Source of the DNA: Verrucomicrobiales bacterium
GTDB taxonomy: Bacteria; Verrucomicrobiota; Verrucomicrobiia; Limisphaerales; J093
Assembly (NCBI GenBank): GCA_037445715.1
Contig: JBBIJZ010000002.1
Location: 30,269-94,268, forward strand
DNA: 64,000 nucleotides
Reading direction: 5' to 3'
This document shows positions 46,671 through 64,000 of the stretch, one piece after another. Both the position numbers and the translations under genes were made by a program. The notes under the pieces were generated by a model. The model did no database searches. It saw only the letters and a program-made list of their open reading frames with translations, and was not told the DNA's origin. Position 1 is the stretch's first letter; each line of letters starts with the position of its first letter.

Positions 46671-49600
46671 CTACGGCACGGTCACCACGCGGTAGAAGCG
46701 ATTGCCCGCCTCGATCGGCAAGGTCACCAGGATCGTCCCCGTGGTGTTCGGATGGGTCGAACGGCGCGTCCAGGCCGCCAGGTCCGCGCTTTCCTCGACC
46801 GCATAGGTGAGGCCGATCCGGCCGGTGATCCAGAGCTGGAGTCCGGCGGGCACGCGCACCAGGCGGAGCTGGGCGGCCTCACTGCCCGGCGGCGGGGCCG
46901 TCACGGGCAGGTAGAGGTTGTCCAGGAACATCGCGTCCAGGCCGCTGGAGAAGTTGCTGTCCTTGACGTAACGCCAGGTCAGCGTGTGGGTGCCCGGGGC
47001 GAGGTTGAACAGGTAGGTTTGCCACGGCACCTCCCCGGTCCAACGCTCGATCCGGAGGCCGTCCACGTAGAATTCGGCGAAGTCCCAGTTGGCCTCGCTG
47101 CTGACGCGGAGGTCGAAGGCCGCCGCGCCGCCGCGGGATTCCACCGTGAGGCTCAGCACACTTTCCTGGCTGTCCCCGATGGCGCCCGAGCGGAGGGCGT
47201 AACGGCCGCCGGCCGCGGTGGCGGACTGCACCTGCCAGGGTTGTACCGAACCGCTCTGCCAGGGCGGCTGCCGCAGGCTGGTGGCGTTGAAGGGCGGCTC
47301 GAAGGTGTAGGTGTAGGCCAGGGGCCGGAACTGCGCGGTGAGGACGTAATTGCGGTCCATGACCAGGAACAACGGATTGGCACCCGAGGTCACCGTGCCC
47401 TGCCAGCCGGCGAAGAAGAAGCCCGGCTCCGGCAGCGCGGTCACCGCCTGGGTCGAGCCGGCCGGATACAGGCCCGCCGGTGGCGTCACCGTGCCGCCCA
47501 CCGGCGGGGTGATGTTGAGCGCGTAGTTCGCGACGCGGTCGTCGTCGAGGATGGTGAGCGTGGCCGTGCTGACGCGGCCCAGCACGGCGCCGCCCTGCGG
47601 GTTGGCCAGCAGCAGCCGCAGGGCGCGGTCCGGCTGCGCGTCGCGGTTGTCGAGCACGGGCACCGGGAAGCTTTGCTCGGTCACGCCCTCGGCAAAGGTG
47701 AGGGTGCCGGCGGCGGCCTGGTAATCCCGCCCGGCCACGGCCGTGGCGTCGGCGGTGGTGTAATCCACCAGCACCACGGTGTTGGTCGGCCCGGTCCGGC
47801 GCACGGTGATGCTGGCCGCGCCGTCGGACTCGCGCACCGACCAGTCGCTTTGGGCGAAGGCCACGGCGCTTTCGTTGTCCACGATGGTCAGAACGGCGTT
47901 GAGCCGGGCGGTCAGGGAGTAACCCGGCGGGAGGTCCGTCAGGTGCAGGTTCACCGTGAGGTCACCCTCGCCCAGGTCGTCATCGCGGATGCGCACCGGG
48001 AAGGTCTTGACCGTCTCGCCCGGCTCGAAGGTGAGGGTGCCCCGGGCCGCGTCGTAATCCTGTCCGGCAATGGCGGTGCCGTCGCTGGTGTGGTAACTGA
48101 CCTGTGCCGGCAGGGAGAGGTCACCGGCGCGGACCACGGTGATGGTGGCCACGCGGCCGTCTTCGGGCACGGTGTAGGTGGCGGCGCTGTATTGGAGCGT
48201 GCTGAGGCGGAACCGCTCATCGCCGTGGAGGCGGGCAATGCGGTTGCGCGGCAGGCCGTCCACCTCGGTGAAATCCCCGCCGATGAGCACGGCCGAGTTG
48301 GGCTGCACCACCAGCGCATACACGGTGTCGTTGGCGCCGGTGCCCACGTCGAAGACCGTGTCGAGCGTGCCGTCCGGGTTGAGCCGCGCCACGCGGCCGC
48401 GGTCTTGCCCGTCGTATTGAGTAAAGGCGCCGCCGATCAGAACCTTGCCATCCGCCGCCAGACCCACGGCGTGAACGGTGCCGTTGGCGCCGGAAAGCGG
48501 GACGAAGGTGTCATCGAGCCCGCCGTCGGCCAGGAGGCGGGCGATGCCGCCGCGCGGCTGGCTGGCGACGCGGCCAAATTCGCCGGCGATGAGGATGCGG
48601 CCATCCGGCTGGAGGGCCAGGGCACGGACCGGTTTGTCGGGACCGCCGCCGGTGTTGAAGGTGCCGTCCGGGCGGCCGTCCGCCTCGAGGCGGGCCAGGT
48701 AGGGCCGGGACTGGTTGGCGGCGGTGGTGAAGGCGCCGGCGACCAGGATGCGGCCGTCGGGCTGGACGGCCAGGGCGTACACGTTGCCGTTGAACTGCGG
48801 CGTGAAGCTGGTGTCCAGCGTGCCGTCGGCCCGGAGGCGGGCCAGGCGGGCGCGCGGCGTGTCGTTGAGGGTGTTGAATTCCCCGCCCACGAGCAAGGTG
48901 CCGGAAGGCTCGACCGCCACAGCGCGCACCGGGCCATCCGCGCCGTTGCCGATGTTGAAATCCTGGTCCGCCGCGCCGTCGGCGTTGAGGCGGATGAGCC
49001 GGTTGCGGCTCAGGGTGTTGAACAGCGTGAAGTCGCCGCCGACGCCGATGCGGCCGTCGGCCTGCACGGCCAGCCCGCGGACGGTGTTGTTGAAGCCCTC
49101 GCCGGGGTTGAAGAAGGTGTCGAGGTACCCGTCATCGTGCACCCGGGCAAGGCGGGCGAGGGTGACCTGGTCCAGCTCGGTGAACCGGCCGCCGAGGAGG
49201 ATGCGCCCGTCCGGTTGCAGGGCCAGGGTCAGCACCGTGTCGTTCGCGCCCTGGCCGGGGTTGAACTCGAAGTCCACGCTGCCGGGGGTTTCGTTGTCCA
49301 CGATGGTCACGGTGGCGTTGGTGTTGGCTCCCAGAATGACGGTGCCCGGCAGGCCGCCGCCGGCGGTCAAGCGCGCGTTGGTGAGGCTGAGGTAAAAGAC
49401 CTCGTTGCCCTCGCCCTGCACGTCGTCGAGGATGCGCAGGGTGAAGGTCCGGTTGGTGTCACCGGGCTGGAGGACCACCACGCCGGTGCCGTCCTGGGCC
49501 CGGAGGAGGTCCGCGCCGAGGAAATTCACCGTGCCGCGGGCACCCACATAATCCTGGGTGGCGCGCGCGGTGCCGTCGGCGGTCTCGAAGTCCACGCTCA

Positions 49601-55353: not shown

Positions 55354-55995
55354 TCACAAGCCAGCTCCGGCCGTCGGCGCCGCCGCGGACCCGACCGGCA
55401 GCCCGGCGAGTCCCAGTTCCGCGAGAATCCGGTCGAGCTGGGCCGCCGTGTTGGCCAGGCCGCCCTCGGCCCAAAGTACGTAATCCGCGGCGGCAATCTT
55501 GCGTTCGATCGGCCATTGCGCGGCCAAACGAAGCGCGATTTCCTCCTCCGACCAGCCGCGCGCGATCAGGCGCTCCCGCTGGCTGGCGGCCGAGCAGGCC
55601 ACGCAGATCGTGGCGTCGAACTGCCCGGCCGCGTCGGTCTCGAACAGGAGGGGGATGACCACCACCGCCGCGGGGCGGCCCTCGTGTTGCCAGGCCTCGA
55701 GCTGCGCCTGCCAAGCCGCCCGGATGCGCGGGTGGAGAATGGCCTCCAACTGGCGGCGCCGGGCGACGTCGGGAAAAACCAGGCGGGCCAGGGCGGACCG
55801 GTGCAGGCGGCCCCGGGCGTCCAGGACGTCCGGACCAAAGGCAGCCACGATTTCCGCCAGGGCCGGCTGGCCGGGTTCCACCAGCTCGCGGGCCAGTTGG
55901 TCCGTGTCCACCACCGGCAGGCCGCGGCGCTGGAGGTAATCGGCAGCGGCAGTTTTTCCCATGCCAATGCCACCGGTGAGGCCGAGGCGTTTCAT
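55354..55995 (-). CDS. coaE: dephospho-CoA kinase
   Basis: LGLTGGIGMGKT P-loop, VVDTD, VVIPLLFE. 213 aa. Confidence 0.9.
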   Translation of the reverse strand: MKRLGLTGGIGMGKTAAADYLQRRGLPVVDTDQLARELVEPGQPALAEIVAAFGPDVLDARGRLHRSALARLVFPDVARRRQLEAILHPRIRAAWQAQLEAWQHEGRPAAVVVIPLLFETDAAGQFDATICVACSAASQRERLIARGWSEEEIALRLAAQWPIERKIAAADYVLWAEGGLANTAAQLDRILAELGLAGLPVGSAAAPTAGAGL

Positions 55996-56018
55996 GAGCC
56001 ACCGCCTGGCTAGTCAGT

Positions 56019-56063
56019 GGATCAGACGGATCGGTCGGATCAGTCGGATCGGCCGGATCATCA
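56019..56063. repeat. 5 x 9-bp tandem repeat GGATCNNNC (five GATC sites at 9-bp spacing)
   Basis: ggatcagac (56019-56027), ggatcggtc, ggatcagtc, ggatcggcc, ggatcatca (56055-56063). The last unit contains the subtilase stop codon. The array ends 23 nt upstream of the coaE ATG. Confidence 0.9.
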
Positions 56064-59000
56064 CGGCCGCACGCCGCGGTAGAACCGATACGGCACCGTG
56101 ACCGATTCGGGGTCCAGGAAGATCACTTCGCCGCCCGTGGCCACGTTGGTGTGCACGGCGCGCCAGCGCGGCGGCAACGAGTCCGCCGCCTGGATGACGT
56201 AGAGCTGGTTGGTCTGGCCCCGCAGTTTCACCTGTACGCCTCCGCCCAGGGCCGGGGCGATGCTCAGGCGCGGCACCGTGCCGTCGTCCGGCACCACCAG
56301 CGGCAACACCACATTGTCCAGCCACGCCGCATCCTGACCGGCGCTCTGGGCAGCGTCCTTGACGTACCGCCATTCCAGAGTGTGGGTGCCCGCTGTCACG
56401 GTGAACTCGTGACGGGTCCAATCCTGTTCGCCGGACCACTTCTGGACCAGCCGACCGTCCAGCCAGAACTCGAGGAAATCCCAGCCGGATTCGGAACTGA
56501 CCTTGAAGTCAAAGCTGGCCCGGCCCTCGCGCAGGGCATGGGTGAGGCGGAGCGCGGATGTCTGGCTGTGCCCGATGGCCCCCGAGCGGGCACTGTAGCG
56601 ACCGGCCGCGGCTGCCTGGTCGGTCACGGTCCACGGCGCAGCTCCTTCCGTCACCCACGGCAGGCGGGACAGGTTGCCGGTCTCAAAGTCATCCGCCACC
56701 GGCAACGGCCGGAAGACCGCGCGCACCTGGAGGTCGTGCGACACGACCACCGAGACGGGGTTTTCCACCGTGTTCACGTCCCCCTCCCAGCGGGCAAACT
56801 CGTAAGCCGGCTGCGGCACGGCGCGGAGCTGGGCCGCGGACTGCGCCAGCACGTCCACCCGCCCGGCCGGCGGCACGGTCGAGCCCCCCTCGGTGTGGTC
56901 CACGTTCAGACTGAAGACCTGGCCCGGGGTGAAGGTGTAGGCCAGTTGGACCGCCCCGTTGGCGCCGGCGTAGCCGTCCACAGCGATGGCATAAACAGTC
57001 CCGGCGCGGACGGCGTGCTGGAGCTTGCTGAAGCCGGAGGACTCGAAGGCGTCGTCGTTGGCCGCCACGGGGGTGAGGGTGTTGACCAGGTCGCCGGTGT
57101 AGAGGCCCAGCAGGGTGTCAAAGCTGCTGCCTTCGGTGGTGAGCAGGAGCGAACCGTTGGCCGGCGCCTCCCATTTCCACCAGAGCGAACGGCCGCCGGG
57201 CTGCCCGGCATGGAGCGGTTCGCCGGGCTGGACCGTGGCCTGGGTGTTGGTGCCGGTGACCGAGCCGGAACTGCCCATCAACAGAGCTGCTTGGGAAAAG
57301 TCATCGTTCGGCGGCCGCACGGTCAGGAAATGCAGGTCCAAGGTCTGCGTCTCAGAGAACAAGCCGGCGGCGTTGACCGCCCGAACGCGGACGCGGTTGG
57401 CGCCGGGCTGCAAGCGCAGGGTCCGGCTCCACGTGGTGGTGCCGTTGGCCGGGGAAGCGATACCGTTGTTCAGGCTCACCAACACCTCGGTCACTTCGGT
57501 GGCGTTGGGGCCGGTGTCGGCTGCCGTGCCGGACACCGTCACGAGCGGGTCGGTCACCCGCAGGCCGCTGCGCGGGCTGGTGATGACCACCTGCGGCGGC
57601 TCGGTCTGCAGGCGTCCGCCCGGGGCGATGCGCAGGCGGACCGAGCCCACGGCGTTGGAGCGGACGCCGGCCAGGACCATGGCATAGGTGCGGCCGGCCT
57701 GGGCCTCGAAGAACAGGTAGGCGCGGCGGCCCGAGACGTTGGTGGTGGTGGTAACGCGCTGAAGGTTGGTCAACACGTTGCCGGTGTAAACGGCCAGCAC
57801 GCTTTCAAAGGTCGTGCCCGTGGCGTCCACCAGGACATTGGTGCTGGCCGGGGCGGTCCAGGACCACCAGAGCGAGGCCGCACGGTTGGTGAAGCCCCCG
57901 TGGGCGGGCTCCCCGACCTCGATGGTCGCAAAGCGGTTGTTGGAAAGGTATTTCGAGCCCGCCGCGGACACCTTGGTCGGCGTGGCGAAATCGTCGTTGA
58001 GCGGGCGCGGAGCCAGCGAATAGCGCACGGTGTTGGTCAGGCTCTCCCGACCCGGGGCGGAAACTTCCAGGGTCATCTCCAGGGAATCCCCCGTGGCCGG
58101 CACCGGCAGGAAGGCGGAGTAACGCGCGTCGCCGGCTGCATCATCGGGCGGTTGACCGTTGTTGAGGAAGATCAGGTCGCCCCCGCCCTGCACCCGTCCG
58201 AGCACGGTGGCGTCGCGCACGCCGAAGCGGTCCCGCACCCGGACCACCACCGGCTGCTGGGAACCGTTGAGGAGCACCGAGCCGGGGGGCGGGTCCACAC
58301 TGATCTGCAGCAGGCCCTCACCGGTGACCGTCAGCGCTCCGTAGGCGTTGAGCCGACCGCCGGTGGTGGTGGTCCGGCTCAACGAGGCGGTGGGAACGGT
58401 ACCGGCCAGGATGCGGTCGCGCACCTCCTCGAGGTCCGCTTCGGGGTACAGGCTCCAGACCAGCGCGGCCACGCCGCTGACGTGCGGGGCGGCCATGCTG
58501 GTGCCGTCGAGGAACTCGTAGTTGTTATCAAACCCCGCGAAGCAGGAGAAGATTTCCACGCCCGGCGCGCCCAGGTGCACCGTATTGTCCCCGTAGTTGG
58601 AAAAGTCGGCCAGGCGCCCGGTCCGGTCTATGGCCGCCACGGAGATGATGTTGTCCAACGGGTAGTTGGCCGGGTAGAACGGGTTTTCGTCATTGTCGTT
58701 GCTCTCGTTGCCGGCGGCCGCCACGAAGAGCACGCCCTGGTCACGGGCGCGGCTGATGGCGTCGAACAACGCCATCGAGAAAGCGCCGCCGCCCCAACTG
58801 TTGTTCAAGATGCGCGCGCCGTGCTGGACAGTGTAATCAATGCAGGTGATCGCATCGGAGGTGCTGCCAAAGCCCGCATCGCCGATGAAGCGGGCAGCCA
58901 TGATGCGGACCCGCCAGGCGACGCCAACGTGGGGGTTGGGGTCGTTGGCTGCCGCGCCGATCGTGCCAGCCACGTGGGTGCCGTGGCCGTCGGTGTCCAT

Positions 59001-59750
59001 GGGGTCGCCGGTCCCCTGGGTGGCATCAATACCGTAGATGTCGTCCACATAGCCGTTGCCATCGTCGTCCAGCCCGTTGGCCGGGATTTCGTTGGGGTTG
59101 ACCCACATTTGCGTCACCAGGTCCCGGTGGGTGTAGCGGACTCCGGTGTCAATCACGCCCACGATCACGTTGGTCGAGCCGGTGGTCAGGTCCCAGGCAG
59201 CCGGGGCGGAGATGTCCACGCCGGGCAGGCCGCCGTCCTGGCCCAGGTTCTGGAGGCCCCAGAGCCGGCCATCCACAAAGGCGGCATCGCGGGGTGTGAG
59301 CAAAGGGCGATAGAGGTAGTCGGGCTCGACGTATTCGAACAGGCCGGAGGCCTTGAGGGTCTGGATGCGGTTCCAAAGACGTTGTCGCTGCGCCTCTTCG
59401 TCCGGTCGGGCAATGCTGGCCGGTGCGCGAGGTGCGGGGTCTTCCAGCAACACCAGCCCCGGCACCAGGGCGTAACGGCGTTCGAGGCGCGAGCTGCTCG
59501 CCGTGACCGCGGCCAGAGCGGGGCCCTCGGCCTGGGAAGGATCGGCCAGTTTGGCCAGAATGCGCGTGGGATGGACCAGATGGCCCTCCCAGGTAACGGG
59601 GTCGGTCTGGGCCAGGAGGGCCCATGACCCGAGGACGAGGGCCAGCACGCCGCCAAGGATCAGGCCGGGCAGGGCGGTGGCACGGAACCCCTGCCCCGGG
59701 CGCGGGGCTTTGGCCGCCGGGGAGCGGGAGGCAAACGGCTCACGGCTCAT
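56061..59750 (-). CDS. secreted S8 (subtilisin-family) serine peptidase with C-terminal accessory domains (1,229 aa)
   Basis: Catalytic Asp in VGVIDTGV (codon 59148-59150), His in HGTHVAG (58983-58985), Ser in GTSMAAPHVSG (58497-58499). Start ATG 59750 (MSREPF..., TM/signal LILGGVLALVLGSWALLA), with an alternative ATG at 59777. Either start overlaps the upstream gene's stop at 59740. Two roughly 115-aa NDDF...GEP...WW.W.AP repeats, followed by the cassette shared with the 2,864-aa protein. Confidence 0.9.
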   Translation of the reverse strand: MSREPFASRSPAAKAPRPGQGFRATALPGLILGGVLALVLGSWALLAQTDPVTWEGHLVHPTRILAKLADPSQAEGPALAAVTASSSRLERRYALVPGLVLLEDPAPRAPASIARPDEEAQRQRLWNRIQTLKASGLFEYVEPDYLYRPLLTPRDAAFVDGRLWGLQNLGQDGGLPGVDISAPAAWDLTTGSTNVIVGVIDTGVRYTHRDLVTQMWVNPNEIPANGLDDDGNGYVDDIYGIDATQGTGDPMDTDGHGTHVAGTIGAAANDPNPHVGVAWRVRIMAARFIGDAGFGSTSDAITCIDYTVQHGARILNNSWGGGAFSMALFDAISRARDQGVLFVAAAGNESNDNDENPFYPANYPLDNIISVAAIDRTGRLADFSNYGDNTVHLGAPGVEIFSCFAGFDNNYEFLDGTSMAAPHVSGVAALVWSLYPEADLEEVRDRILAGTVPTASLSRTTTTGGRLNAYGALTVTGEGLLQISVDPPPGSVLLNGSQQPVVVRVRDRFGVRDATVLGRVQGGGDLIFLNNGQPPDDAAGDARYSAFLPVPATGDSLEMTLEVSAPGRESLTNTVRYSLAPRPLNDDFATPTKVSAAGSKYLSNNRFATIEVGEPAHGGFTNRAASLWWSWTAPASTNVLVDATGTTFESVLAVYTGNVLTNLQRVTTTTNVSGRRAYLFFEAQAGRTYAMVLAGVRSNAVGSVRLRIAPGGRLQTEPPQVVITSPRSGLRVTDPLVTVSGTAADTGPNATEVTEVLVSLNNGIASPANGTTTWSRTLRLQPGANRVRVRAVNAAGLFSETQTLDLHFLTVRPPNDDFSQAALLMGSSGSVTGTNTQATVQPGEPLHAGQPGGRSLWWKWEAPANGSLLLTTEGSSFDTLLGLYTGDLVNTLTPVAANDDAFESSGFSKLQHAVRAGTVYAIAVDGYAGANGAVQLAYTFTPGQVFSLNVDHTEGGSTVPPAGRVDVLAQSAAQLRAVPQPAYEFARWEGDVNTVENPVSVVVSHDLQVRAVFRPLPVADDFETGNLSRLPWVTEGAAPWTVTDQAAAAGRYSARSGAIGHSQTSALRLTHALREGRASFDFKVSSESGWDFLEFWLDGRLVQKWSGEQDWTRHEFTVTAGTHTLEWRYVKDAAQSAGQDAAWLDNVVLPLVVPDDGTVPRLSIAPALGGGVQVKLRGQTNQLYVIQAADSLPPRWRAVHTNVATGGEVIFLDPESVTVPYRFYRGVRP

Positions 59751-62700
59751 AGCTGACTCGGTAGTAACGCTGCGCATCCTGGAGCGGCACGCCGCCCGTC
59801 GGCCGGTGGGTCAGGGTCAGGATTTGCACCGACGGGTTGGGATTGGACATGCGGGCGGCCAACTGCCAGTTGGGGTTGAGGAGATTGGTGGTGTACCAAA
59901 CGGCGTAGTCGGTCCGCGCCGCCGCCCGCCAGGACAATTCCACTTCCGGCGGGTTGACACTCGTGACCCGGAACCGGGTGATCAGCAGGTCGTCAAAGGG
60001 CGAGAGGTCCAGGCCGTTGACCACGCCGTCGCCATCGGAATCCAGGGTCAGACTTTGGAGCAGGCCGAGATTGACCCGCAGCACCCGGCCGTCCTTGAGG
60101 GCCACATCGGCGCCGCTGTTGGGGCCGGCGTAGCTCTTGACCCAGCGGAGCCGGTTGTTGAAGCGCCCGTCCAGCGAGTCCGGATCGAGGTTGGACATGG
60201 CGAAGTACACCGTCAGCCCGGGCTCGATGACCAGGTAGTTCTCCGGGTCCTCGGCCACGGTGGTGGCCGCGCCGATGTAGCGGTTGGTACTGAACTCCAG
60301 GAAATCCACGTACAGGGCGTATTGGCCGGGCAAGGGCTGACCGAAGTCGTCCACCGGCGGGCCCAGACGCAGTTCACCGAACGCCTGGCTGTCCAGGAAC
60401 AAGTGCCCGAGGGCGACGTTGTTCGAGAAACCGGCCGGTGAAGGCCCGCGGTCTGCCGCCGCCCAGGTGTGGGCCACACTGACAAACCGCGGGGCGGTGG
60501 TCTCGACACGGGTGCCCAGGAGGTCACCTGCCGCCGGGGCCCGCAACAGGTGGAACCCATCCGAAAGCTCGAGGCTGTTGCCGGAGTCCGGCCCGGCGTC
60601 GGCCAGGCTGTTGGTCACGTTGATCAAGAGGCTGCGGCCAGCCACCAGGCGATGATTGCGCAATTTGAAGCTGCCGCCGGCATAGTGGGCCGAGCCGCCG
60701 ATGTCGTGAAAGCTGCCTTCCAAGATGGCCTCGTCCGCAGTCAGACGCAGGTCGTAGGTGTTTTGGACCACGCCGGAGTCCTGATACTGGGTGGCGAGGA
60801 TTTCGTGCCCTTCCGCCTCCAGGCGGCCGGTGTTGACAAAGCGCTCGAGCCGCCGGCCGGCCGGAAAATCCGCCCCGTAGTAGCCCACGTTCCATGGCCG
60901 GAGGGTGCCGTGGTTGGTCAGGAAACGCAGCCGCGGCGTCATGCTGGCTTTCCAATCGGGGATGGCGTTGGTCAGGGCGATACGGCCGTTGACGGTGAGG
61001 CTCTCGGCGTTGATGAGGAGGCGGTCGCTGACCAGGTACGGGTCGTCCACAACCACGTTGGTGCTGTTGAGGGTAAGGGTGTGGGTGATGACCTGCTGGG
61101 TGCGGGTGAGGAAATCCGCGCTCAGGATCAGGCAGTAAAGGTTGATGTCAATCGGGTTGGTGACCGGGTTGAAATAGTTGGTGTTGGGGTCAATGAACCA
61201 GTTGGACAGGACCACGGCGAACTGGTTGGACCAGATGCCGGTCCAGGCCCGCAACTCGCCCCGGACGGCATGGAAACTGTCCTTGGCCAGGTTGCGGACG
61301 GTCAGCAGCCCGTTGGTCGAGCTGAGGTCATAGACCAGGTTCTCAACGTCTACCAGGGCCCCCTCGGAATTCTGCAGGTGGGCGGTCTTGATTTGGACCA
61401 GGGTCTCGCCCCGAATCCGGGTCCGGCTCAGGTCCAGTGTGTCCGCAGTGATTTCGATCCGGCCCGGCGTGTTGGTGGGCGACACGCCGGGGACCAGGGG
61501 GGGCCGGGACTGGAGACTGTCAATGCTGGCCGCGTAGCCGGCGTACATGTTCGTGGCAAAAACGTTGGAGAAAGTGGTGTTGTACAAAAAGCCGCCCACC
61601 AGCGAGGTGTTCCCGAGCGAACCCAGGGCATCGAAGAAGGGTAAAGAGCGGTAAATCTCGTAGGCCAAAGGCCGGCCGGTGGGCGTCCAAACTCCCCGGT
61701 TGGTCACGATTACGGTGTTGGTGTCGTAACCCAGGTAGTCGAGGAAGTAGAGCGTGTCCCGCTGTGGCGCGCCCTGGGCGACGTTGGTGGTCTGGGAGGC
61801 GATTTCGACCGCCACGATACCGAAGCCCAGTCCGGCCGGGCCGGGCGGACCGAAACGGGCCTGCACGGTGAAGTTGGTGTCGTTGACCCCCACCACCACG
61901 GCCTGCCGGAAGATGTTGGTCGGCAGCGTGATGTTGGTCACGGAGCCATCCTGGTTGGTTAGGGTGAGGAAGGTGGACGCCACCACGCCCGTGTTGGCAA
62001 AGGCGGTGAAATACTCGGCCGGGACAAAGGTACTGACGCTGGCGAAACCGTTGGCCCAGTTCGGGCCACTTTGGACCACATGAAGCCCGCTGCTGGCCAG
62101 CAGGTCGGTCCCAATGAAACGCAGCACGTTGGCCGTGTTGAGCGGGCCGGGGTTGGGAACCTGCTGGATGCCGGCCCCCCAGTAGAGGTCATAGATGGCG
62201 TTGTCGCCCAAAAAGCTGTCAAGGATGTTGTCGCCGGTTTCCTCAAAATACACGTTGGCAGTCGGGGAACCTTCAATGGGCAGCACTTCCAGCCCGCCGC
62301 GGCTGAGGTTGACCTGTTTACCCTCGATGCGGATGGTGCCGTTGTTGCCCACCTGAAGGTAGCCCGGACTCAGCACATTGGTGGCCGAAATATCGAGCAT
62401 GGTCTGGAAATAGACATTGCTGTACCCACCGTATTGGTTGGCATCGAGGGCGAAGATGCCACCAGAAGCCTCGTTGACGAAGCGGGCGGCCGGCCGGCGG
62501 ATGCCGAAGTCGTCCGTGTAATCAAACCGGAATCCGGGGGCTCCCTGCATGGTGCCCCGGTTGGTGTAGTACAGGGTGTTCTGGAAGTCGTAGGGCAGGA
62601 GCGTTAGCACCCCAAAGGTGCCCAGGTTCAGGAAAGCGGTGGCGTTGATCTGGGGCGGGTTGGTGAAGGTGACCGCTCCCGGATTGATGAAAATGGGGTC

Positions 62701-62877
62701 CACCTGGGGGGTGGGGAGAATCCGGTTGGGCACCCAGTCGTACCGCCCCACCGCGTTGAACGGCGTGGCGTAGGTGGTTCGTCCCGAGTTGACGTACACC
62801 GGCTGGGTGCCCGCCGCGGCCGCTCCGCTGCTCAGGAGCAACATCACCACCACACGCGTTCTGAAAAGCCAGTCCAT
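59740..62877 (-). CDS. secreted hypothetical protein (1,045 aa), Asn/Thr/Tyr-rich, beta-helix-like, with shared C-terminal domain
   Basis: ORF 59740..63054 trimmed to ATG 62877 (MDWLFRTRVVVMLLLSSGAAAAG signal). Calcium-binding-like LDSDGDGVVNGLD near the C-terminus. The last roughly 75 aa end in QRYYRVSYEP. No family recognised. Confidence 0.7.
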   Translation of the reverse strand: MDWLFRTRVVVMLLLSSGAAAAGTQPVYVNSGRTTYATPFNAVGRYDWVPNRILPTPQVDPIFINPGAVTFTNPPQINATAFLNLGTFGVLTLLPYDFQNTLYYTNRGTMQGAPGFRFDYTDDFGIRRPAARFVNEASGGIFALDANQYGGYSNVYFQTMLDISATNVLSPGYLQVGNNGTIRIEGKQVNLSRGGLEVLPIEGSPTANVYFEETGDNILDSFLGDNAIYDLYWGAGIQQVPNPGPLNTANVLRFIGTDLLASSGLHVVQSGPNWANGFASVSTFVPAEYFTAFANTGVVASTFLTLTNQDGSVTNITLPTNIFRQAVVVGVNDTNFTVQARFGPPGPAGLGFGIVAVEIASQTTNVAQGAPQRDTLYFLDYLGYDTNTVIVTNRGVWTPTGRPLAYEIYRSLPFFDALGSLGNTSLVGGFLYNTTFSNVFATNMYAGYAASIDSLQSRPPLVPGVSPTNTPGRIEITADTLDLSRTRIRGETLVQIKTAHLQNSEGALVDVENLVYDLSSTNGLLTVRNLAKDSFHAVRGELRAWTGIWSNQFAVVLSNWFIDPNTNYFNPVTNPIDINLYCLILSADFLTRTQQVITHTLTLNSTNVVVDDPYLVSDRLLINAESLTVNGRIALTNAIPDWKASMTPRLRFLTNHGTLRPWNVGYYGADFPAGRRLERFVNTGRLEAEGHEILATQYQDSGVVQNTYDLRLTADEAILEGSFHDIGGSAHYAGGSFKLRNHRLVAGRSLLINVTNSLADAGPDSGNSLELSDGFHLLRAPAAGDLLGTRVETTAPRFVSVAHTWAAADRGPSPAGFSNNVALGHLFLDSQAFGELRLGPPVDDFGQPLPGQYALYVDFLEFSTNRYIGAATTVAEDPENYLVIEPGLTVYFAMSNLDPDSLDGRFNNRLRWVKSYAGPNSGADVALKDGRVLRVNLGLLQSLTLDSDGDGVVNGLDLSPFDDLLITRFRVTSVNPPEVELSWRAAARTDYAVWYTTNLLNPNWQLAARMSNPNPSVQILTLTHRPTGGVPLQDAQRYYRVSYEP

Positions 62878-62926
62878 AAAGCTGCTCTCAAGTTCGTCTC
62901 GCCTGCCCCCCGGGTCAATCTCCCGC

Positions 62927-64000
62927 TCAGGGCGTGGTCCCGCCTCCCCCACCGAATCCGCCGGTGCCCGTTTGCCCTCCCTGCGTGGTTCCCGCCCCCA
63001 CGATGATGAAGGGTGACAGCCAAGGGTTCTCGTCCCGGTCCCGGACCTTCCCATCGAAAATCAGCCGCTCCAAAGCCCGAATGCTGGCGCCCTGCGGGAA
63101 CACCACCGGCTCGTTGGTGGTGCCGTCGTAGGCGCCCCACAAGACGCCAAGAAAACCATCTGCCTGGCCGCCGCCCGGGCTGTTGATCAGGTACTCGCCC
63201 AGCTTGCTGAAAGAAATGACGTGGGGCCCGGAGATGGTGCCCGGACCGGACAGGACCGTGCTTCCGTTGAGGGCGTCCTGGCTGGTCAACACCATGCTTT
63301 TGGCAAAAAAGATTGGATCGCCAGCAGGGGTAATTCCCAAATCCGCGGCCTCGAACAGGATGTCGGGCGCCGCCAGGGTCCGCTGCAGGAGCTGGGTACG
63401 CTGGACGAAGTTCGAAATGTACCGGTCCACGTACACGTTGGTCATGGCCACCCAGTTGCCCACCAGCGAGTCGTAGTTCACCCGCACGAAGGTGACCTTG
63501 TCCACCCCGGGGCGCAGGGCGATGTTCACCGGCGGGAGGTTGGTCCCCGCCACCACATTGGTGAATCCCGGCGGCGCGCCCCAGCCGTTTACCTTGCCCT
63601 GCGAATCCACCCCGACGATGTAGTTGCCGCGCTGGGTCCCCAGCGGCGCCTGCACCACGTTGGTCTCCAGGGGCTCGACGTTGAAATTGTCCGGGCGATA
63701 GACGTAGCGGAGCATGCCGACATCGTCCCGGGTCAGCCCGGTGAAAAACATGCCGGGCGACAGGGTGGCAAACATGCCGCTCGCCTGCACCGTCCCTCCC
63801 CACACGTTGAACGCGGAAACCGAACTCACACTGGGCCGGCTGGGGTCCACTTCAAATTCCACCGCCTCCCAAGTCGGGGTCGTGTAGGTCTGGATGATTT
63901 GGTACGTGTACAGCGCGCCGTTGACGTAGCTGGAAGGCTCGAAGGTGACGGGATCGAAATTGCGCTTGATGACCGCGTACACCGGGATGTTGTTGATCAC
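62927..64000 (-). CDS. hypothetical secreted protein, C-terminal part (5' end outside window), Gly-rich tail
   Basis: The frame is open to the window edge. Ends in GGQTGTGGFGGGGGTTP. Located 49 nt upstream of the next gene on the same strand. No family recognised. Confidence 0.6.
   Translation of the reverse strand: MINNIPVYAVIKRNFDPVTFEPSSYVNGALYTYQIIQTYTTPTWEAVEFEVDPSRPSVSSVSAFNVWGGTVQASGMFATLSPGMFFTGLTRDDVGMLRYVYRPDNFNVEPLETNVVQAPLGTQRGNYIVGVDSQGKVNGWGAPPGFTNVVAGTNLPPVNIALRPGVDKVTFVRVNYDSLVGNWVAMTNVYVDRYISNFVQRTQLLQRTLAAPDILFEAADLGITPAGDPIFFAKSMVLTSQDALNGSTVLSGPGTISGPHVISFSKLGEYLINSPGGGQADGFLGVLWGAYDGTTNEPVVFPQGASIRALERLIFDGKVRDRDENPWLSPFIIVGAGTTQGGQTGTGGFGGGGGTTP

Follow-up and report, generated by a model that had tools for sequence, protein, structure and literature searches.

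The 64,000-nucleotide (nt) window considered here, by which is meant the whole stretch of DNA that was analysed, is taken from the Verrucomicrobiales bacterium assembly GCA_037445715.1 (Limisphaerales; J093; 4.17 Mb in 188 contigs), where it spans positions 30269-94268 of contig C2 (JBBIJZ010000002.1). At its right-hand end three genes follow one another on the minus strand: gene A, gene B, and a gene for a subtilase of peptidase family S8. The first-pass annotation, made from the window alone, read these three as a secreted module. Comparison with related genomes shows that A and B close a conserved block of seven genes, which is followed by a variable eighth position. The genes for PilM, two small proteins (g405 and g264), a PilQ-type secretin with N-terminal TPRs, a protein called X, and then A and B are contiguous and collinear in all 80 loci compared; all seven are present in 47 of these, and the remainder are cut by contig ends only. 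This arrangement is firmly established. Judged from gene order, the real conserved unit is PilM to secretin followed by X-A-B, which reaches beyond the window edge and was thus invisible to the first-pass annotation. The expectation that the module would continue past that edge was borne out, as the contig extends a further 4 kb, up to protein X and the secretin.

The 80 loci are the best of 367 relatives recovered by scanning species-representative genomes with a profile of A. All are metagenome-assembled genomes of Verrucomicrobiota, from soil and water species labelled Pedosphaerales, Limisphaerales, Pedosphaera or subdivision 3, and they represent 29 families or more, with protein identity falling to about 35-45%. 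In addition, 61 genomes of Pedosphaerales/Limisphaerales were searched whole for A, B, X and the secretin. Gene A was found in 58 of these genomes, always directly upstream of B, gene B in 56, as a single copy, and X in 57, where it invariably separates A from the secretin, whose orthologue is located 2-5 kb upstream of A. The genes are closely packed, with median gaps of 4 nt between X and A (75 loci) and 24 nt between A and B (73 loci). No terminator-like site was seen between the genes of the locus, a scan for promoters and terminators being uninformative at 70% G+C. Over A and B (59740-64000) the G+C content falls to 63-64%, against about 70% in the remaining window, which fits the Asn/Thr/Tyr-rich composition of the two proteins.

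The block is confined to one order. Among 150 genomes from other orders of the phylum, the profile of A had no match in any, and the body of B was likewise absent, the matches to B being limited to the last ~95 profile positions, which hold a calcium-binding-like loop and the C-terminal domain. In three outgroup genomes the secretin gene lies near coaE, which encodes dephospho-CoA kinase and follows the block in most loci of the order: the distance is 162 nt in G123, 1.2 kb in G108 and 3.1 kb in G209. X-A-B and the gene after them therefore look like an order-specific insertion between the secretin gene and coaE.

What follows B could be read in the 67 of the 80 loci that have enough sequence beyond it. 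The next gene encodes an S8 peptidase in 22 loci, from several families of the order, an M36 fungalysin in 12, and in 5 another head on the same tail of ~700 amino acids (aa), one of these being an S53 sedolisin. In 9 loci coaE comes directly after B, in 1 there is an M66-like giant, and in 18 there are other genes (Calx-beta/DUF5122 giants, a PIG-L deacetylase, and others). Taken over all classes, a peptidase with the same tail stands after B in 39 loci, and A and B are retained in the 28 that have none. When the tail of the window S8 was used as a tblastn query, it scored 400-750 bits on M36-headed proteins, which points to a head swapped on a conserved tail; at locus L075 the same tail carries an S53 head with a Pro-kumamolisin domain. 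S8 and M36 alternate even inside the source genus, and S8, M36 or S53 heads are found on one tail at a fixed position in sister species (loci L049, L052-L054 and L075). On this census the S8 gene is not a fixed member of the block and occupies a variable slot between B and coaE.

The S8 protein itself is, by its domains, an ordinary member of the Peptidase S8 family and is predicted to be active. The triad motifs are intact and in the order D, H, S (VIDTG, HGTHVAG and GTSMAAPH), and NNSWGG can also be read. The chain consists of a signal or anchor segment, a propeptide region, the catalytic domain, PPC, Ig and PPC domains, an InlB-B-repeat, a jelly-roll and a C-terminal tag; the stretch from the first PPC domain onward is the tail that other peptidases share. 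The gap from the subtilase stop to the coaE start is filled by five GATC-containing 9-bp units (GATCCGNNN, 56019-56063). In the source genome an M66-like (StcE-type) giant lies just after coaE.

The first-pass annotation had placed A, B and S8 on the minus strand with 49 nt between A and B and with the stop of B inside the start of S8, and the open reading frames (ORFs) and junction sequences agree with it on each of these points. The stop of A (TGA, 62927-62929) lies 49 nt ahead of the ATG of B, and that of B (TGA, 59740-59742) falls within the S8 start, giving an overlap of 11 nt if S8 begins at ATG 59750 or of 38 nt if it begins at ATG 59777. From this arrangement it had been proposed that A and B make up a surface component, structural or adhesive, and that S8 is their dedicated maturation protease, produced along with them through translational coupling. 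Such a dedicated protease is consistent with the overlap, present in the source genome and its closest relatives, with an orthologous S8 after B in 22 of the 67 loci, and with the wider occurrence of same-tail peptidases. The overlap is kept only in close relatives, however, and in 10 of the 22 S8 loci the in-frame stop 5′ of the S8 ORF falls after the B stop, so that an overlap is impossible there, in about half of the S8 loci. Moreover, A and B persist in the 28 species that have no such peptidase, coaE following B directly in 9 of them; the exchange of serine (S8, S53) and metallo (M36) heads, even inside a genus, is hard to square with a specific processing site; and the tag and accessory domains of S8 are shared with dozens of other exported proteins of the genome. 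A protease dedicated to A and B is thus distinctly improbable. Of the original proposal, the predicted export of A and B, the close packing and joint conservation of their genes and a plausible surface or structural role survive; the inclusion of S8 in a conserved trio does not. The S8 of this genome is most likely a co-expressed, secreted cargo that would degrade extracellular protein.

The genes upstream of X identify the kind of machine to which the block appears to belong. On C2 the secretin gene lies upstream of X, and a second contig of the source genome, C88, which abuts the end of C2, carries PilM, g405, g264 and the start of the secretin gene. In the locus of a relative, Pfam assigns a 633-aa upstream protein to PilM_2 (E 2e-33) and finds both TPR and Secretin (E 1e-28) on one chain of 962 aa. 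The 47 loci that reach that far all show the succession of PilM-like protein, two small proteins and TPR-secretin that is characteristic of a type IV pilus-like, MUL2-type secretin cluster. The two small proteins, g405 and g264, had no match when compared with PDB sequences. In G009 (L043 10859-14302), genes for an exosortase (EpsH) and a sugar transferase lie just upstream of the PilM-secretin cluster.

In the source genome the secretin is divided between two genes (contig C2, window-equivalent 66344-68005, minus strand). A Gly-rich tail and a TAA stop close the N-terminal piece, and 39 nt further on GAAGGAA is followed by an ATG, which opens a second piece of ~200 aa with its own signal peptide and ribosome-binding site; Pfam Secretin positions 43-169 lie in this second piece. 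The same split is common to 22 of the 53 species in which it could be determined. Read-through or selenocysteine insertion was suspected, as three genomes have both pieces in a single frame, and was rejected: the stop is TAA, TGA or TAG depending on the species, and the frames differ, which indicates fission of the secretin gene and not read-through.

Next in the block comes protein X, ~650 aa long and provided with a signal peptide; it combines a repeat propeller with an FN3-like domain, carries a TSP3-like loop, and shares its C-terminal domain with B. In G015 (L040 15446-16381) the secretin gene and X are separated by an inserted gene for a 5′-3′ exonuclease. About 20 of 51 loci have a gap of ~0.9-1.3 kb at this point, compatible with the same insert, the exonuclease being annotated in G015 alone.

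Gene A is open at the window edge and continues towards a scaffold gap of 100 Ns (window coordinates 64273-64372), which hides its first ~60 codons, including the start codon and signal peptide, and removes the last ~11 codons of X. Reading across the Ns merges X and A into a false frame of 1,121 codons. The full length of A, ~510 aa, is known from a 94%-identical orthologue in a sister genome, whose N-terminus reads MRACLKRLLLVVALLCGLPRAQA/FALLG. Its signal peptide ends in ...PRAQA ahead of FALLG and is of the ordinary Sec type (AxA then F); the mature N-terminus of A is conserved, as FSLLGP. AlphaFold models of A and B were built with 44-45 homologues each. That of A (predicted local distance difference test score, pLDDT, 80.4; predicted template-modelling score, pTM, 0.79) consists of two domains, with a low-confidence loop around residues 290-305 linking them. 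Family scans with Pfam and NCBIfam (the latter at E <= 0.1 for A, B and S8) gave no match for A, a profile search against PDB sequences gave none below E 0.1, and Foldseek found none below E 0.1 in the PDB, the sole echo being 40 residues of the catalytic domains of matrix metalloproteinases. The family is a large one, with 1,603 clusters at 50% identity in a library of 1.84 billion proteins, and the source names listed for homologues of A and B are all 'hypothetical protein'. It is firmly established that A belongs to a new, order-restricted family, predicted from its sequence to be an exported two-domain protein.

On the longer family members of A (650-1,630 aa) the A profile matches in two stretches. 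In some of them the two domains of A are separated by a DUF5122 propeller of seven blades, by a PPC/galactose-binding-like domain or by a He_PIG domain, and insertions of 200-1,100 aa are tolerated; this would fit an exposed, outward-facing loop. In the window, A ends in a Gly/Thr-rich tail. Tails of this kind, Gly/Thr(/Tyr)-rich and ending in GGTTP, are confined to part of the clade with the split secretin (loci L048-L064), and their composition mirrors, species by species, that of the Gly-rich end of the secretin N-terminal piece; the correlation between A tail and split secretin is partial and confounded by phylogeny. One candidate identity for A, a degenerate metzincin, was suggested by the pattern YRWN..ITYGFD and is ruled out, there being no HExxH in A; Foldseek aligns just 34-44 residues to the metalloproteinase catalytic domains, at E > 2. 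Also dropped for both A and B was a place among the accessory proteins of type IV pili or of type II secretion systems (T2SS), namely PilN/O/P, PilY1, TsaP, pilotins and pseudopilins, to none of which there is a sequence, profile or fold match. Both proteins have ordinary Sec signal peptides in place of the prepilin leader of a pilin (cleavage at G/F, then a hydrophobic helix).

Gene B begins with MDWLFRTRVVVMLLLSSGAAAAG, likewise an ordinary Sec signal peptide (AAA then G), followed by ~35 disordered residues, an all-beta body of ~900 residues, a DSDGDG segment and the C-terminal beta-sandwich tag. Signal peptides had been assigned to the complete proteins of the module, and the assignment agrees with the N-terminus of B, with the hydrophobic segment of S8, which begins after ~25 residues, and, for A, with the orthologue. 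The AlphaFold model of B (pLDDT 88.4, pTM 0.73) shows the signal helix, an all-beta, beta-helix-like body and a C-terminal sandwich. No Pfam (E <= 0.01) or NCBIfam match was found for B, none below E 0.1 in a profile search against PDB sequences, and none for its model in Foldseek, either against the PDB below E 0.1 or against BFVD at E <= 0.001. For both models the best template-modelling scores (TM-scores) in Foldseek are ~0.1-0.15, and the nearest neighbours of B, at non-significant scores, are beta-helix passengers and small FN3 domains. The earlier description of B as beta-helix-like is therefore upheld by the all-beta model and left weak by the Foldseek matches, and the statement that A and B belong to no known family holds in both sequence and structure, confidently predicted yet without a PDB match. 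B is firmly placed as a new, order-restricted family of proteins predicted to be exported.

The calcium-binding-like DSDGDG loop of B, already noticed in the first reading, is TSP3-like. It has the pattern DxDxDGxxDxxD, B itself giving no Pfam match at E <= 0.01, and residues D946, G951, N954, D957 and P960 are invariant in 44 homologues. At the equivalent position an X orthologue matches TSP3_bac with 22.3 bits, below the curated cut-off of 25. The ~80-aa C-terminal domain that follows, ending in ...RYYRVSYEP in B, is grouped by Foldseek with FN3-like sandwiches. Several identities were considered for B and dropped. Kinship with tailspikes, pectate lyases or autotransporters found no significant Foldseek match; a passenger of an autotransporter or of two-partner secretion (TPS) is contradicted by the want of a C-terminal beta-barrel, a TPS domain or a TpsB partner, the neighbours being X, A and a peptidase, and by the FN3-like sandwich at its end; and cargo of the type IX secretion system was dismissed, as no TIGR04183-type Por_Secre_tail match appeared in A, B or S8 (NCBIfam, E <= 0.1), in an organism that is a verrucomicrobium.

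A profile of the C-terminal domain was built from the tails of X, B, S8 and a neighbouring giant. It finds the tag, ~57-80 aa long and ending in ...(F/Y)YR.., in 69 ORFs of the source genome, and 56 of the 72 matches end 2-12 residues before the stop, the usual distance being 2-7 residues. Large proteins from other orders of the phylum also end in the tag, for which there is no Pfam or NCBIfam model. It is accordingly a genome-wide and phylum-wide feature of large exoproteins and not a mark of X-A-B; it may be regarded as a candidate sorting or anchoring signal. The features located within the window are collected in Table 1.

Table 1. Coordinates of the features of the A-B-S8 region, in window positions
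Feature	Position (strand)	Basis or remark
Gene A	62927..64000 (-), to ~64,450 beyond the window	C-terminal 357 of ~510 codons; open at the window edge
Gly/Thr-rich C-terminal tail of A (GAGTTQGGQTGTGGFGGGGGTTP)	62930..62998 (-)	Confined to part of the clade
Gene B	59740..62877 (-)	1,045 aa from ATG 62877
TSP3-like calcium-binding loop of B (LDSDGDGVVNGLDLSPF, residues 944-960)	59998..60048 (-)	Alignment of homologues
C-terminal domain of B	59743..59988 (-)	Genome profile search; Foldseek
Overlap of B stop with S8 start (ATGAGCCGTGA)	59740..59750 (-)	Junction sequence
S8 subtilase	56061..59750 or 59777 (-)	1,229 or 1,238 aa; Pfam, NCBIfam, translation
S8 catalytic domain (residues 193-451)	58398..59174 (-)	PF00082 Peptidase_S8, E 3e-54
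Peptidase tail, ~730 aa	56064..58253 (-)	tblastn; same tail carries M36 or S53 heads elsewhere
Tag domains inside the window	59743-59988, 56064-56288, 46674-46900	Profile search
coaE (dephospho-CoA kinase)	55354..55995 (-)	PF01121, E 7e-50; conserved downstream boundary

Taken together, the gene order and the predicted export signals suggest that X, A and B may be exported, surface-facing additions to a secretin machine of the MUL2 type described in Akkermansia, with S8 as an interchangeable secreted cargo; the chances of this being so are judged about even. The genes for X, A and B would have been added in Pedosphaerales/Limisphaerales only, between the secretin gene and coaE of a type IV pilus-like cluster, and their products would form an order-specific module for attachment or substrate capture, placed on the outer side of the secretin machine. 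B might then be a long beta-helical stalk that ends in the calcium loop and the phylum-wide tag, A a two-domain scaffold whose inter-domain loop could accept whole binding domains in other species, and X a propeller-FN3 protein with the same tag. Several points weigh against such a role. The models of A and B are unlike any known pilus, secretin-associated or adhesin protein, so that the role is drawn from context alone; synteny inherited inside one order counts for less than an independent re-association would; the exonuclease insert and the ~1 kb gaps mean that the secretin and X-A-B may not always share a transcript; a MUL2A pilin-like gene was not seen beside PilM in the inspected loci; and A is without the C-terminal tag seen on B, X and S8.

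In another explanation, X, A and B belong among the ordinary secreted or cell-surface proteins (nutrient-scavenging binders, for example), have no mechanistic tie to the secretin, and owe their gene order only to inheritance. All evidence for the link is indeed synteny within one order, the neighbouring genes also encode large tag-bearing exoproteins, and the secretin gene is separated from X by the exonuclease in G015 and by the ~1 kb gap in about 20 species. Against it stands a gene order that has no exception in 80 species of at least 29 families, while the next position reshuffles freely. Unlike typical adhesins or cargo, all three genes occur as single copies and almost universally, and within a species the Gly/Thr-rich tail of A resembles the gate-loop tail of the secretin in composition. 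Merely inherited order is on balance rather unlikely.

It may also be asked on which side of the outer membrane A and B act. Their conservation at a housekeeping level, the missing export tag on A, and the occurrence in one clade of both a two-chain secretin and a Gly-rich tail on A are what might be expected if the two belonged structurally to the secretin machine proper, in the periplasm or outer membrane (as a plug, a periplasmic ring or an assembly factor, for instance), and were not surface-displayed binders. Against this stand the tag on B and X, which is typical of the large exoproteins of the genome, the tolerance of A for propeller, PPC and Ig insertions of 200-1,100 aa, which fits an exposed loop, and the elongated, all-beta ~900-residue body predicted for B, which resembles a fibre or passenger; an internal position for A and B is accordingly rated unlikely. 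The preferred reading, of X, A and B as surface-facing additions to the machine, can be carried one step further as a tentative and rather unlikely proposal. The three proteins could be the outer working parts through which the PilM-PilQ apparatus captures polymers or displays or exports ...YYRV-tagged proteins; A would dock on the secretin, its Gly/Thr tail mirroring the gate-loop tail in the split clade, and the slot would provide degradative heads that are interchangeable on a shared docking tail.

Soil and freshwater harbour Pedosphaerales/Limisphaerales in abundance, almost all of them uncultured, and what the verrucomicrobial pilus-like secretin cluster does is only beginning to emerge from Akkermansia, where it is tied to mucin uptake. 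Three order-specific, universal families behind this cluster, with confident predicted structures, two of them without a known structural relative, may offer a lead to the role of the machine outside the gut. For annotation, the locus is better treated as the genes from PilM to the secretin together with X-A-B and a variable slot for cargo than as a trio centred on a protease. The replacement of serine by metallo heads on one tail provides a natural example of domain exchange at a fixed locus.

The closest known system is that of Akkermansia. Its PilQ, Amuc_1098, has 907 aa and N-terminal TPRs and is the organism's most abundant outer-membrane protein (PMC4960237), and Amuc_1099-1102 constitute MUL2, which two reports describe as a type IV-like pilus locus for attachment and mucin transport or uptake (PMC13174399; PMC12418764, the latter citing a transposon study). 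The same reports give MUL2 as syntenic with a 'secretion system channel protein' and dephospho-CoA kinase (PMC13174399; PMC12418764). Shared with the present locus are the make-up and order of the upstream genes, which encode a PilM-like protein, then two small proteins, then an N-terminally TPR-bearing secretin of ~900-1,000 aa (PMC4960237), and the position of coaE beside the secretin gene in Akkermansiaceae (PMC13174399). The PilM-secretin cluster is the homologue of Amuc_1098-1101, that is, of the PilQ secretin and three of the four MUL2 genes; g405 and g264 may correspond to Amuc_1100 and Amuc_1099 by position only. The two systems differ in that Akkermansiaceae have nothing between the secretin gene and coaE, where X, A, B and a variable fourth gene are found here, and in that the secretin is split into two genes in the source family.

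Other resemblances concern single members of the locus. B is, like the beta-helix passengers Pet, Hbp, EspP and HxuA, a long, all-beta, Asn/Thr-rich protein with a predicted export signal, and these are its best Foldseek neighbours, at non-significant scores (E >= 0.16, TM <= 0.14); it differs from them in ending in a small FN3-like tag. Substrate genes are known to adjoin type II secretion clusters, as with the pullulanase PulA beside the pul genes, or SslE or StcE beside their T2SS. The present locus similarly has large hydrolases or binding proteins, predicted to be exported, beside secretin machinery, including the M66-like giant past coaE, whereas the machinery here is of the PilM/PilQ and not the Gsp type, and typical cargo is far less conserved than X, A and B. 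Finally, S8 resembles the multidomain secreted subtilases in its full triad and its PPC and Ig-like domains, and is set apart from them by its ~730-aa tail, which is common to M36- and S53-headed peptidases at the same position of the locus.

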